Part shown: positions 58,801 to 64,000 of the stretch, one piece after another
How positions within the stretch are numbered: the stretch's first letter is position 1
How the letters are laid out: each line of letters opens with the position of its first letter
Assembly (NCBI RefSeq): GCF_054482525.1
Contig: NZ_CM137006.1
Strand: one strand, 5' to 3'
Length of the DNA stretch: 64,000 nt
Position numbers: made by a program

Positions 58801-61800
58801 GACACAGCTGCTGATGCTGACAGATAAGCAAATCGCCGATTTCCAGAAACATTATCAGACTGAAGCGGAGCGTTTTCATATTCTGCCACCGGGGATTTAT
58901 CCTGATCGTAAATATAGCCAGCAGCCAGCCAATAGCCGTGAAATCTTCCGTAAGAAGAATGGAATAACCGAACAACAATATTTATTGTTGCAGGTCGGTT
59001 CAGACTTCACGCGTAAAGGTGTCGATCGTTCCATTGAAGCACTTGCTTCATTACCGGATTCGCTGCGCCACAACACATTGCTATATGTTGTTGGGCAGGA
59101 TAAACCGCGAAAATTTGAGGCGCTGGCAGAAAAACGCGGCGTGCGCAGTAATGTTCACTTCTTCTCGGGGCGCAACGATGTCTCGGAATTAATGGCGGCG
59201 GCGGATTTATTACTGCATCCCGCCTACCAGGAAGCGGCGGGAATTGTGCTGCTGGAAGCGATTACTGCAGGATTACCGGTACTAACAACAGCCGTTTGTG
59301 GCTATGCGCATTATATTGTCGAGGCCAATTGCGGCGAGGCTATTGTTGAGCCATTCCGCCAGGAAACATTGAATGAGATTTTACGCAAAGCGTTAACGCA
59401 ATCTTCATTGCGCCAGGCCTGGGCGGAAAATGCGCGACATTATGCTGATACACAAGATTTATACAGTCTGCCAGAGAAAGCGGCGGACATCATAACGGGT
59501 GGTCTGGATGGTTGAACTTAAAGAGCCGTTTGCCACGTTATGGCGCGGTAAAGATCCTTTTGAGGAAGTTAAAACTTTGCAGGGTGAGGTATTTCGTGAA
59601 CTGGAAACTCGCCGTACTCTGCGCTTTGAAATGGCGGGCAAAAGCTATTTTCTCAAATGGCATCGCGGCACGACCCTGAAAGAGATAATCAAAAATTTAC
59701 TCTCATTGCGGATGCCAGTATTAGGCGCAGACCGCGAATGGAATGCGATTCATCGACTGCGGGATGTCGGCGTTGATACTATGTATGGGGTGGCATTCGG
59801 CGAAAAAGGCATTAATCCGCTCACCAGAACCTCGTTTATTATAACCGAAGATCTGACACCAACCATCAGTCTGGAAGATTACTGTGCTGACTGGGCGACT
59901 AACCCACCAGATGTTCGCGTAAAGCGTATGCTTATTAAGCGTGTCGCGACGATGGTGCGCGATATGCATGCTGCGGGCATTAACCACCGTGACTGTTATA
60001 TCTGTCATTTCCTGCTGCACTTGCCTTTTTCCGGTAAGGAAGAGGAGTTAAAAATTTCAGTAATTGACCTGCACCGGGCGCAGCTTCGCACGCGCGTTCC
60101 ACGTCGTTGGCGCGATAAAGATCTTATTGGACTTTATTTTTCTTCGATGAATATTGGCCTGACTCAGCGGGATATCTGGCGGTTTATGAAAGTGTATTTT
60201 GTCGCCCCGCTTAAAGACATTATCAAGCAGGAACAAGGGCTGCTGTCGCAAGCAGAAGCAAAAGCCACAAAAATCAGGGAAAGAACGATTAGAAAATCGT
60301 TGTAATTTCCGGAGAGAAATATGAGTGCCCACTATTTTAATCCACAAGAGATGATCAATAAGACAATCATCTTCGATGAAAGGCCAGCGGCGTCAGTGGC
60401 ATCATCATTCCATGTTTCTTATGGCATTGATAAAAACTTTCTTTTTGGTTGTGGTGTTTCAATCACGTCAGTTTTGTTACATAACAACGACGTGAGTTTT
60501 GTTTTCCACGTTTTTATTGATGCTATCCCTGAAGCCGATATCCAGCGTTTAGCCCAATTGGCGAAAAGCTATCGTACCTGTATCCAGATCCATCTAGTAA
60601 ATTGTGAACGGCTTAAGGCATTACCGACGACCAAAAATTGGTCTATTGCCATGTATTTCCGTTTTGTAATTGCAGATTACTTTATTGATCAACAAGATAA
60701 GATCCTTTACCTGGATGCTGATATCGCCTGTCAGGGAAACTTAAAGCCGCTGATAACAATGGATCTTGCCAATAACGTTGCTGCTGTTGTTACTGAACGC
60801 GATGCTAACTGGTGGTCGTTACGGGGTCAAAGTCTGCAGTGTAATGAACTTGAAAAGGGTTACTTTAATTCAGGTGTCCTGTTAATTAATACACTAGCGT
60901 GGGCGCAGGAGTCCGTTTCTGCTAAAGCGATGTCGATGCTTGCTGATAAAGCCATCGTTTCCCGTTTAACCTATATGGATCAAGATATCCTTAATCTTAT
61001 CCTGTTAGGGAAAGTTAAATTCATTGATGCTAAATACAATACGCAATTTAGTTTAAATTATGAATTAAAAAAATCATTTGTTTGTCCAATTAATGATGAA
61101 ACCGTATTAATTCATTATGTCGGCCCGACAAAACCCTGGCATTACTGGGCCGGTTATCCAAGTGCGCAACCTTTTATCAAAGCCAAAGAAGCATCGCCCT
61201 GGAAAAATGAACCGTTAATGCGGCCAGTTAACTCAAACTATGCTCGTTATTGCGCCAAGCATAATTTTAAACAAAATAAACCAATTAACGGGATAATGAA
61301 TTATATTTATTATTTTTATTTAAAGATAATAAAATGAAATTGAGAAAAGTTAAATGAATGAATTTATAAAAGAACGGTTTTCGTATTTAGCAGATAATAA
61401 AAAAGAAAACGCCCCAGAGCTAAATGTTTCCTACGGTATCGATAAGAATTTTTTGTATGGTGCTGGCGTTTCAATTTCTTCCGTTTTGATTAATAATTCA
61501 GATATTAATTTTGTCTTTCATGTTTTCACTGATTATGTGGATGATGATTATTTAAAGTCATTTAATGAAACAGCAAAACAATTTAATACCTCAATTATTG
61601 TATATTTAATTGACCCCAAATACTTTGCTGATCTGCCGACGTCACAGTTTTGGTCGTACGCGACATACTTCAGGGTATTGTCTTTTGAATATCTGAGTGA
61701 AAGTATTTCCACACTGCTGTATCTGGATGCCGATGTTGTTTGTAAAGGAAGCCTGAAACCTCTCACAGAAATTATATTTAAAGATGAGTTTGCTGCGGTC

Positions 61801-64000
61801 ATTCCTGACAATGATAGTACTCAGGCGGCATGTGCAAAACGCCTCAACATTCCCGAAATGAATGGACGTTATTTCAATGCAGGCGTTATCTATGTCAATC
61901 TTAAAAAATGGCATGAAGCAAATTTGACACCGTATTTACTCAAACTTTTACGAGGGGAAACTAAATATGGCTCTCTTAAATATTTAGATCAGGATGCGTT
62001 GAATATCGCATTTAATATGAATAATATCTACCTTGCGAAGGATTTTGATACTATTTATACCCTGAAAAACGAACTTTATGATCGTAGTCATCGAAAGTAT
62101 CAGCAAACCATTACCGATAAAACAGTGTTGATTCACTATACAGGGATAACTAAACCATGGCATAGCTGGGCTGGATATCCGTCTGCATCATACTTTAATA
62201 TCGCGCGTGAACAATCTCCCTGGAAGAAATATCCTCTTAAAGAGGCGCGGACTGTTGCAGAAATGCAGAAACAATATAAGCATCTGTTTGCCCATGGTGA
62301 GTATATAAAAGGCATAACTTCATTAATTAAGTACAAGCTTAAGAAATAAATTACTCTTATGATTACAAGTATACGTTATCGCGGCTTCTCATTTTATTAC
62401 AAAGATAATGATAATAAATATAAAGAAATCTTTGATGAAATACTGGCCTATAATTTTAAAACAGTAAAAGTATTACGTAATATTGATGATACCAAAGTAT
62501 CGTTGATTGATACGAAATATGGTCGCTATGTTTTTAAAGTCTTTGCTCCGAAAACGAAAAGGAATGAACGTTTTTTTAAATCTTTTGTAAAAGGTGACTA
62601 CTATCAGAATTTGATCGTTGAAACCGATCGTGTCAGAAGTGCAGGTCTTACTTTTCCTAATGATTTTTATTTTCTGGCTGAGCGTAAATTTTTCAACTAT
62701 GCCAGTGTTTTTATCATGCTTATCGAGTATGTCGAGGGCGTAGAGCTCAATGATATGCCGATTATTCCAGAAAATGTTAAAGCAGAAATTAAGGCTTCAA
62801 TGGAAAAATTGCATGCCTTAAATATGCTATCGGGCGACCCACACCGGGGTAACTTTATCGTTAGTAAAGATGGTGTCAGGATAATTGACCTATCCGGTAA
62901 AAGCTGTACGGCAGAGCGTAAAGCTCGTGATCGTCTGGCCATGGAACGTCACCTGGGTATTGCCAACGAAATAAAAGATTATGGCTACTATTCAGTAATC
63001 TACAGAACCAAACTACGCAAATTTATTAAAAAATTAAAAGGCAAAGCGTAAACCACACAGTCAAAACGGAACCAACATGGATTTATTAGCTGAGAGTATT
63101 ACTGAAGTCACTGTCTCTGGGAAAATTACTAACACCGATCGTGTGTTAAATATCGCTTACGGTATTGACCGCAACTTTTTATTTGGTGCGGCAGTATCTA
63201 TGCAATCAGTTATTATGCATAACCCGGACCTTGCGGTTAAGTTTCATCTCTTTACCGACTACATTGATGAAGATTATCTACAACGTGTTAACGCTTTTAC
63301 CAGCAAAAATGCTAACGTTGAAGTAAGAATTTATAAAGTCTCCAGTGCCTTTATTGATATCTTCCCCAGCCTGAAACAGTGGTCTTATGCAACATTCTTC
63401 CGTTTAGTTGCGTTCCAGTATCTGAGTGAAGTTATTGAAAATCTGTTATATATCGATGCTGATGTCATCTGTAAAGGCTCATTAGCTGGATTGCTTGATA
63501 TTAATTTTGATGGCGATAAGTTCGCAGCTGTTATTAAAGATGTGCCTTTTATGCAGGAAAAACCAGCGAAGCGTCTGGCTATAGAGGGACTTCCAGGTAA
63601 TTATTTCAACGCCGGTGTAGTATATCTGCAGCTTGAAGCATGGGCGAAAAATGATTTTATGAATAAAGCCATTGCTATGCTGGCAAGTGACCCGCAGCAT
63701 ACGAAGTATAAATGCCTTGATCAGGATATTTTAAATATTCTGTTCTTTGGTCATTGTATTTTTATTAGCGGCGATTATGATTGCTTTTATGGCATTGACT
63801 ATGAGTTAAAAAATAAAAGCGATGAAGATTATAAAAAGACCATTACCGATGATACTAAGCTGATTCATTATGTTGGCGTAACGAAGCCCTGGAACGACTG
63901 GACGAATTATCCCTGCCAGAAGTATTTTAATGAGGCTTATCAGGCTTCTTGCTGGAATGATGTGGCGTTTATTCCAGCCACGAATGAAAAGCAGTATCAA

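Follow-up and report, generated by a model that had tools for sequence, protein, structure and literature searches.

An R1/R4-type lipopolysaccharide outer-core gene block in Escherichia coli, most probably from a strain of core type R1

The window analysed here, a 64,000-nucleotide stretch of contig NZ_CM137006.1 (assembly GCF_054482525.1), ends within a lipopolysaccharide (LPS) core locus. With high confidence we read its last 3680 nt (60321-64000, hereafter the interval) as the 5' outer-core part of the waaQ operon, in the version common to R1 and R4 cores, waaO-waaT-waaY-waaW, and the source strain as most probably R1. Core type sets the site and mode of O-antigen ligation, and it affects phage receptor specificity, anti-core antibody recognition and typing schemes. 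The R1/R4-class outer-core block is already known and its members are ordinary E. coli LPS core genes; as E. coli cores are most often of type R1, a call of R1/R4 class, most probably R1 and not K-12, helps annotation and phage choice, yet is routine.

Gene content of the waaQ operon

The first-pass annotation had described, after waaP, two GT8 genes, waaY and a further, partial GT8 gene, and the ORFs lie exactly where it had placed them, with HMM matches that agree (Table 1). A scan 3' of waaP returned three ORFs, those of waaO, waaT and waaY, followed by a frame that stays open from 63077 to the window end; upstream, waaG shares 4 nt with the end of waaQ and 8 nt with the start of waaP. The block consists of real genes and not chance ORFs, since 2518 complete E. 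coli genomes have annotated genes that match it at 98-100% identity, and the genes inside the window are all intact and identical to common alleles. The window end cuts waaW 8 nt short of its R1- or R4-specific 3' end.

Table 1. Features of the waaQ operon in the window; enzyme specificities are predictions.
Feature	Coordinates	Strand	Description and evidence
JUMPstart element with ops sequence GGCGGTAGCGTG	57248..57286	+	waaQ operon leader; Rfam RF01707
waaQ	57336..58394	+	Heptosyltransferase III, gene 1 of the central core operon; ORF, rfaQ annotation in identical SCU-102 sequence
waaG	58391..59515	+	GT4, first outer-core glucose onto HepII; ORF and annotation
waaP	59508..60305	+	Heptose I kinase; Pfam Kdo/WaaP family, NCBIfam RfaP equivalog 480 bits
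waaO	60321..61337	+	GT8, 338 aa, predicted UDP-glucose:(glucosyl)LPS alpha-1,3-glucosyltransferase adding GlcII; NCBIfam WaaO equivalog
waaT	61354..62349	+	GT8, 331 aa, predicted alpha-1,2-galactosyltransferase adding GalI to GlcII; Pfam GT8 and GT8C
waaY	62359..63051	+	Predicted heptose II kinase, 230 aa; Pfam WaaY E 3e-129, NCBIfam RfaY equivalog 400 bits
waaW	63077..64000	+	GT8, 5' 308 of 342 codons, predicted alpha-1,2-galactosyltransferase adding GalII to GalI; translation, Pfam GT8
Typing primer R1R4-R site (TTCTTGCTGGAATGATGTGG)	63946..63965	+	Exact match; common to R1 and R4 loci

The domains that mark the GT8 family, Glyco_transf_8 (PF01501) and Glyco_transf_8C (PF08437), were found in WaaO, WaaT and WaaW alike (Pfam E 1e-72 to 1e-80). 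The NCBIfam WaaO equivalog gave 610 bits for the first GT8 protein against a cut-off of 461, and the other two, WaaT and WaaW, fall below that cut-off; the RfaP and RfaY equivalogs are both above their own. Across eight WaaO/T/W/J sequences the invariant residues are D132-A-D134 (the DXD motif, intact in WaaO), H265 and K271, and the nearest solved structures are GT8 enzymes (PDB 3tzt and LgtC 1g9r/1ga8). The exact WaaT sequence is WP_001001720.1, present in R1 genomes and R4 genomes alike. It bears the UniRef name Q9ZIS6_ECOLX, which probably stems from the original 1998 deposits; the name was not counted as evidence. We infer the specificities of WaaO, WaaT, WaaW and WaaY from the identity of their sequences to characterised homologues.

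The JUMPstart/ops element would be where RfaH acts to antiterminate transcription of the long waaQ operon. The leader in the window matches the Rfam model at 55.2 bits (gathering score 35) and has an exact ops match at 57275-57286.

Comparison with the five core types

The proposal that the block is waaO-waaT-waaY-waaW, as in R1 or R4 cores, is borne out by the proteins, which are 98-100% identical to those of R1- and R4-typed genomes and only 32-54% identical to their counterparts in K-12, R2 and R3 cores. WaaO is 100% identical to that of an R4 genome and of R1 SCU-102 and 50-54% identical to WaaO of K-12, R2 and R3; WaaT is 43-45% identical to WaaJ of these three types; WaaY matches R4 loci at 99-100% identity and K-12, R2 and R3 WaaY at 53%; and WaaW, over its 308 residues, is 100% identical both to R1 SCU-102 and to an R4 genome. 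The gene order waaP-waaO-waaT-waaY-waaW, in which waaY is preceded by two GT8 genes and followed by one, is the same in annotated R1 and R4 loci. Of 5426 complete E. coli genomes, 2518 (~46%) carry the block, at a nucleotide identity of 98.1-100%; downstream of it, 1832 genomes have waaV with the R1 waaL, and 691 have waaX with the R4 waaL. A plasmid-borne copy of the block was considered and rejected: each of the six records labelled 'plasmid' is either a mislabelled chromosome (1-4.9 Mb) or a non-mobilizable fragment of 3-10 kb, and nothing therefore points to a mobile copy.

R1R4-R, a published typing primer (Table 2 of PMC13293308), has its site in waaW, and primers R2, R3, R4-F, R1-F and K-12 have no site in the window at up to three mismatches. 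The absence is uninformative for K-12 and R2, because their targets would fall beyond the window anyway; for R3-R, whose site in R3 loci is in waaJ, absence at up to three mismatches is informative. Reference loci were typed in silico with the published primers (products of 842 bp for R1, 380 bp for R4, 610 bp for R2, 1021 bp for R3 and 1442 bp for K-12), and they agree with published typing: PCN033, GE3 and EC2341 are R1, and APEC O2-211 and HeN100 are R4.

Could the locus instead be of K-12, R2 or R3 type, its order having been misread at first? This reading is refuted. All that speaks for it is that the five types all use paralogous GT8 enzymes and WaaY. K-12 and R2 loci have the same operon frame, with the JUMPstart leader and waaQ, waaG and waaP first. 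After waaP the orders differ, and the window proteins share only 29-54% identity with those of the three types. The K-12 order had been given correctly: MG1655 is annotated waaP-waaS-waaB-waaO-waaJ-waaY-waaZ-waaU, with waaS-waaB directly after waaP, and no WaaS or WaaB homologue is found among the four genes 3' of waaP in the window. This difference in order, together with K-12 GT8 proteins and WaaY that are just 32-53% identical, places the strain outside the K-12 type, as had been suggested. In R2 (AR_0162, 610-bp product) waaP is followed by a GT8 gene and waaB-waaO-waaJ-waaY-waaZ-waaK, at identities of 29-53%. Taken together, K-12 and R2 loci are 20-30% divergent from the window in waaQ, waaG and waaP at the DNA level, and at the protein level stand at 50% for WaaO, 36-45% for WaaJ and 53% for WaaY. 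The R3 locus (waaQGP-waaO-waaY-waaJ-waaD, with waaL on the opposite strand, as in O157:H7) is close in waaQ, waaG and waaP, its WaaP being 97% identical and the WaaG of O157 TR01 identical to that in the window, and it too uses GT8 enzymes and WaaY; it differs in having a single GT8 gene before waaY and a GlcNAc transferase (both in O157 TR01), and in proteins that are only 37-54% identical overall (WaaO 54%, WaaY 53%, WaaJ 37-43%). In a megablast search with the interval, no K-12, R2 or R3 genome matched beyond a 50-nt stub.

Predicted assembly of the core

The R1 core oligosaccharide has the structure Gal-Gal-[beta-Glc]Glc-Glc. On the published scheme, transcription would start upstream of waaQ, and RfaH acting at JUMPstart/ops would carry it through the long operon. 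WaaG would then place GlcI on HepII, WaaO would add GlcII (alpha-1,3), WaaT would join GalI to GlcII (alpha-1,2) and WaaW GalII to GalI (alpha-1,2), while WaaP and WaaY would phosphorylate HepI and HepII, respectively, and WaaQ would add HepIII. The three GT8 enzymes are predicted to be retaining GT-A transferases with a DXD motif. The step that determines the type would be encoded just beyond the window end: in R1, WaaV (GT2) would put a beta-1,3-glucose on GlcII, the O-antigen attachment site for the R1 WaaL, and in R4, WaaX (GT25) would add beta-1,4-galactose in place of the WaaV glucose. These roles follow the summary in 10.1101/2022.09.06.506728, which cites Heinrichs et al. 1998.

Core type of the source strain

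Within the window, R1 and R4 cannot be told apart. The R1 locus (waaQGPOTYWVL; prototype F470, Heinrichs et al. 1998; examples PCN033, SCU-102, 536 and GE3) has the same order and the shared primer site and shows no difference within the window, as the waaW 3' end, waaV and waaL that define R1 lie beyond it. The R4 locus (waaQGPOTYWXL; prototype F2513; EC2202095, RIVM_C036569, APEC O2-211) shares the order of waaO, waaT, waaY and waaW and differs downstream, in the last 32 residues of WaaW and then in waaX, a GT25 gene, and a waaL of another type. An alignment of six R1 and six R4 loci showed that none of the 132 variable sites of the interval is fixed between the types; the type-diagnostic bases begin 8 nt past the window end (window-equivalent position 64008), and the type-specific last 32 residues of WaaW are likewise encoded outside. 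Past position 64000 the R4 form reads GTGAAATCCAGACATTTG... and the R1 form GTGAAATACCAACATGCA...; the R1 continuation is GTGAAATACCAACATGCAAAGAAAAATGGTGATACG..., then a GT2 gene and the R1 waaL (WP_001366747.1), and the R4 continuation is GTGAAATCCAGACATTTGAAAAGAAATGGTAATATT..., then a GT25 gene. The waaO-waaW block is thus uninformative for R1 versus R4, and typing needs the last ~100 nt of waaW, waaV versus waaX, or waaL.

Overall identity of the block was also rejected as a guide to type: the interval has no mismatch to one R4 genome, as against 23-60 per 3680 nt to R1 genomes other than SCU-102, to which it likewise has none. The window allele is in fact nearer in the interval to one R4 group (0-1 mismatch) than to most R1 genomes. 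The R4 genome EC2202095 (GT25 gene, R4 waaL, 380-bp product) is 100% identical to window positions 59616-64000, and RIVM_C036569, also R4, has a single-nucleotide difference in the interval. With an R4 genome base-for-base identical over the interval, the first-pass annotation had stopped at the right limit in leaving R1 versus R4 open.

Since no R1-specific base lies inside the window, the R1 call comes solely from clonal relatives. The 5426-genome collection does not include the source genome; its best match, SCU-102, differs from the window at 8 places over the full 64 kb, 7 of them SNPs and one a 7-nt indel. Over 39001-64000 only three of the 5426 genomes, SCU-102, PCN033 and 19KM1776, match at ~100%, the next best reaching 98.9%. 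The source strain belongs to the clone formed by these three (phylogroup D, O11:H15, ST5147). In each of its sequenced members waaV and the R1 waaL come next, with WaaV WP_000064000.1 and WaaL WP_001366747.1, so that inspection of the downstream genes gives R1 in all three near-identical genomes; the R1-specific WaaW C-terminus, …VKYQHAKKNGDTF…, is present, and waaX, the R4 waaL and the 380-bp R4 product are absent. The 842-bp R1 product (R1-F with R1R4-R) was obtained in silico from SCU-102 and 19KM1776, only its waaW primer site falling inside the window. PCN033 is typed R1 in the supplement of PMC13293308; its genome paper states no core type. Because all sequenced members of the clone are R1, the source strain is most probably R1 as well.

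Two other readings of the source strain have to be weighed. The first, which we regard as unlikely, is that it is R4, with the R4-specific waaW 3' end, waaX (a GT25 beta-1,4-galactosyltransferase) and an R4-type waaL. The identity of EC2202095 and near-identity of RIVM_C036569 would fit, as would the status of R4 as the commonest core type in phylogroup D (60.9%; PMC13293308) and the R4 type of second-tier relatives such as NA3664. Left of 59616, however, the window departs by ~1% from these R4 genomes (24 of 2295 nt) and is identical to R1 SCU-102, and the ~100% matches over 25 kb are the three R1 genomes only, all others being at 98.9% or less. The second reading, which we consider very unlikely, is an atypical or hybrid downstream locus: both cassettes together, a locus disrupted by an insertion sequence, so that the core is truncated as it is in E. 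coli B, or a cassette not described before. Such loci do occur. ECOR46 has waaV and the R1 waaL and also waaX and the R4 waaL (PMC13293308); the counts of R1 (1832) and R4 (691) continuations exceed the 2518 block carriers by five, so that both cassettes may be present together in a few genomes; and IS1 or IS903B insertions lie in the block of BL21, Ec-U14-1 and 19AR1724. Against this, the genes in the window are intact, common alleles, the R1 locus of the three clonal relatives is a plain one, and such variants make up ~1% of genomes (PMC13293308).

Probable exchange of the type-specific cassette

The R1 clone and one group of R4 genomes (EC2202095, RIVM_C036569, Ec-U14-1 and relatives) share a haplotype of ~8 kb, from waaP (59616) to the end of waaC, over which they are identical or ~1 base apart except in a type-specific cassette of 2.6 kb that comprises the waaW 3' end, waaV or waaX, waaL and the waaC 3' end. 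The left breakpoint lies inside waaP at 59615/59616, with EC2202095 mismatching at 24 positions across 57321-59615 and at none from 59616 to 64000. The DNA flanking the haplotype on both sides is ~1% divergent between the clone and the R4 group, and left of 59616 and over the remaining 60 kb of the window EC2202095 and RIVM_C036569 match at 98.9-99.0% only. Ordinary clonal identity of the two groups, as a source of the identical flanks, conflicts with the 98.9% identity over 25 kb.

The near-identical flanks on both sides of the 2.6-kb cassette point to its recent swap by homologous recombination. We lean, with some reserve, towards viewing the PCN033/ST5147 clone, in a phylogroup (D) where R1 is a minority, as a natural near-isogenic R1 counterpart of the R4 group at the waa locus. 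If so, homologous recombination would have replaced nothing but the cassette, crossing over at the extreme limits of homology, and would have switched the core type very recently. A change from R4 to R1 seems the more parsimonious direction; comparison of flank divergence across types gave no resolution. As no R1 cassette from outside the clone comes closer than 99.2% identity, the donor is not among the sampled genomes, and because the locus shows evidence of recent exchange, an exchange of the cassette in the source strain itself is possible. The locus fits the homologous-recombination model for core-type switching (Leclercq et al. 2021; PMC8715443), of which it would be a clean example, confined to a 2.6-kb cassette on otherwise identical flanks.

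Results

After waaP, the genes at the end of the window follow in the order GT8, GT8, waaY, GT8, as the first-pass annotation had read them; the ORFs lie where it placed them, Pfam and NCBIfam agree, and the K-12 order that it gave was accurate, MG1655 having waaP-waaS-waaB-waaO-waaJ-waaY-waaZ-waaU. Only the first of the three GT8 products passes the NCBIfam WaaO equivalog cut-off (461), at 610 bits; all three retain the hallmarks of the family, namely the DXD motif (D132-A-D134 in WaaO) together with the conserved His and Lys, and their closest solved structures are GT8 enzymes, LgtC among them. 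The outer-core genes have a GC content of 32-42%, lower than the ~50% of waaA-waaP, as already described for the locus (PMC8715443). The JUMPstart/ops element in the waaQ leader is expected for this operon and has a share in the expression of the block.

Features of the window and the type-specific cassette of a clonal relative
Feature	Position	Strand	Length	Description
Toxin gene and partner	4936-5602	-		RelE/ParE-family toxin gene paired with helix-turn-helix gene, between nepI and yicN
iatC ORF	7216-18333	+	3705 aa	inverse autotransporter adhesin (SCU-102 annotation)
Tandem array in iatC	~10650-16191			repeats of ~290 nt, ~84% alike
Type III secretion accessory island	18383-25345	-		by selC region; eilA (HilA-family regulator), IpaD/SipD-like tip protein, SctE translocon subunit, SycD/LcrH chaperone
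nlpA	~26157-26974			frameshifted in SCU-102 annotation
ORF in nlpA region	26305-26967		220 aa	
tRNA-Sec (selC)	~29640-29930			adjoined by short rhuM gene fragment
Prophage-type gene fragments	~47430-47710			BRO family protein, DnaD; between yicC and yicG; pseudogenes in SCU-102 annotation
JUMPstart RNA motif with ops	57248-57286			waaQ leader; Rfam, 55 bits
waaQ	57336-58394			ORF
waaG	58391-59515			ORF
waaP	59508-60305			ORF; kinase, Pfam WaaP
waaO (first GT8)	60321-61337		338 aa	Pfam GT8 and GT8 C-terminal domain
waaT (second GT8)	61354-62349		331 aa	Pfam GT8 and GT8 C-terminal domain
waaY	62359-63051		230 aa	kinase, Pfam WaaY
waaW (third GT8)	63077-64000		308 codons	Pfam GT8 and GT8 C-terminal domain; frame open to window end
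Type-specific cassette	17009-19620 of SCU-102 locus L001		2.6 kb	

The locus was compared with reference loci of all five core types, at least one per type. The published LPSTyper primers (PMC13293308, Table 2) gave each of them its correct type in silico, with products of 842 bp for R1, 380 bp for R4, 610 bp for R2, 1021 bp for R3 and 1442 bp for K-12, and several agree with the supplement of that study. By blastp, WaaO, WaaT, WaaW and WaaY of the window are 98-100% identical to their R1 and R4 counterparts, and none of the three GT8 proteins has a K-12, R2 or R3 ortholog as its best match; against those types, identity is 50-54% for WaaO, 43-45% for WaaT (versus WaaJ) and 53% for WaaY. Gene order differs as well: where the window has two GT8 genes after waaP, K-12 (MG1655) has waaS-waaB, whereas R3 has one GT8 gene ahead of waaY and R2 has GT8-waaB-waaO-waaJ in place of waaO-waaT. 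The low identities and differing gene orders rule out K-12, R2 and R3, so that on sequence comparison the locus is established as R1/R4 class, outside the K-12 type, as had been proposed.

In the R2 locus of AR_0162 (L018, 3008-3988), a GT8 gene sits directly after waaP, at the place of K-12 waaS; a GT8 gene in that position is therefore not, on its own, diagnostic of R1, R3 or R4. In DNA comparisons with window positions 57336-60305, waaQ, waaG and waaP split deeply into two lineages, R1/R3/R4 being ~99% alike and K-12/R2 (L009, L018) 20-30% divergent, so that linkage to type extends to the 'conserved' 5' genes of the operon.

Taken on its own, the interval from waaO to the window end (60321-64000, 3680 nt) can never separate R1 from R4: in an alignment of six loci of each type it has 132 variable sites, none fixed between the types, and the first diagnostic column is the equivalent of position 64008, 8 nt beyond the window end, from which the last 32 residues of WaaW are type-specific (R1 YQHAKKNGDTFNAF…, R4 SRHLKRNGKIASSF…). 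The type call must therefore rest on the remainder of the window, that is, on clonal relatives. The window is a segment of the E. coli chromosome that extends from uhpT into the waaQ operon by way of the selC region, spoT, pyrE and coaD-waaA. Three complete genomes, SCU-102, PCN033 (O11:H15, phylogroup D, ST5147; PMC4578781; supplement of PMC13293308) and 19KM1776, are 100% identical to its last 8 kb, and across all 64 kb 7 SNPs and one 7-nt indel separate it from SCU-102. Only these three match the last 25 kb at ~100%, every other genome reaching at most 98.9%, which makes the source a further member of their clone.

An R4 strain would sit comfortably with the interval itself, as R4 genome EC2202095 is identical over 59616-64000 and R4 genome RIVM_C036569 has a single-base difference in the interval, R1 genomes outside the clone differing at 23-60 positions; it is nevertheless quite improbable, since the three-genome clone alone matches the remainder of the window, and its members all have one and the same WaaV (WP_000064000.1) and R1 WaaL (WP_001366747.1). 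SCU-102 and 19KM1776 yield the 842-bp R1 product in silico, and PCN033 has been typed as R1 (supplement of PMC13293308). The strain is thus very probably R1, on the loci of its clonal relatives and not on the bases of the interval; the sliver of probability left after R1 and R4 goes to an atypical locus, for example one like the double-cassette locus of ECOR46 (PMC13293308).

Discussion

The gene block is a textbook one, already known and carried by nearly half of E. coli genomes: the interval is found in 2518 of 5426 complete genomes at 98.1-100% identity, with an R1 continuation (waaV and R1 waaL) in 1832 and an R4 continuation (waaX and R4 waaL) in 691. K-12 accounts for ~1038 of the 5426 and R2-like loci for ~484, and the remaining ~25% corresponds to R3. 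These proportions agree with the published shares of 35.4% R1, 25.8% R3, 18.4% K-12, 12.3% R4 and 8.2% R2 (PMC13293308).

Set against EC2202095 and RIVM_C036569, both R4, the locus of the window and its clone is a mosaic. Left of 59615 divergence is ~1% (24 mismatches in 2295 nt); it falls sharply to 0-1 mismatches from 59616, inside waaP, to the cassette start (~4.4 kb). Against that 1% background, a run of 4385 identical bases is not a chance outcome. Right of the cassette, waaC has a single mismatch over 1032 nt before divergence returns to ~1.2%, with the right-hand edge at ~20652/20653 of L001; over the same waaC stretch, the clone differs from R4 RIVM_C036569 (L004) by 1 per 1032 and from R1 strain 536 by ~22 per 1000. 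R1 clone and R4 genomes thus share an ~8-kb haplotype differing in the cassette only, which points to a recombination tract of recent date and, nested within it, a recent cassette swap through homologous recombination whose crossovers fell where homology ends. Outside the clone, no R1 cassette comes closer than 99.2% identity. Homologous recombination was proposed earlier as a route of core-type exchange (PMC8715443), which makes the swap a clean illustration of a known idea and not a new one.

In the published scheme, WaaG places GlcI on HepII and WaaO then adds GlcII (10.1101/2022.09.06.506728, citing Heinrichs et al. 1998), GalI is attached to GlcII by WaaT and GalII to GalI by WaaW, the beta-glucose branch on GlcII is made by WaaV and requires prior action of WaaW, and the heptose region is decorated by WaaP, WaaQ and WaaY in that sequence (10.1101/2022.09.06.506728). 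By analogy, the enzymes of the window would act in the same core-building order. PGAP names WaaO 'lipopolysaccharide 3-alpha-galactosyltransferase'; E. coli WaaO is an alpha-1,3-glucosyltransferase in the K-12 annotation and in the literature, and the sugar in the PGAP name is probably incorrect. Work of Heinrichs and colleagues from 1998 reportedly identifies the beta-glucose branch as the O-antigen attachment site in R1, and R4 is said to have WaaX instead, adding beta-1,4-galactose.

In other records the block is interrupted, by IS1 inside waaO in Ec-U14-1 (L017), by IS1 within waaO-waaW in BL21, presumably the waaT insertion already described for E. coli B, and by IS903B in 19AR1724; such insertions would truncate the core. 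Candidate mobile plasmid copies (PLSDB matches H133-H138 and three 'plasmid' places in genome searches) were rejected: each record is either a chromosome, complete or in part (1-4.9 Mb), or a non-mobilizable fragment of 3-10 kb, and these entries seem to reflect errors of labelling or assembly. Elsewhere in the window, the type III secretion island looks like the ETT2-associated eip/eil cluster of other E. coli, and the rhuM fragment like the scar of an island formerly integrated at selC. As only a short ORF is left in the nlpA region, the nlpA pseudogene is probably common to the clone.
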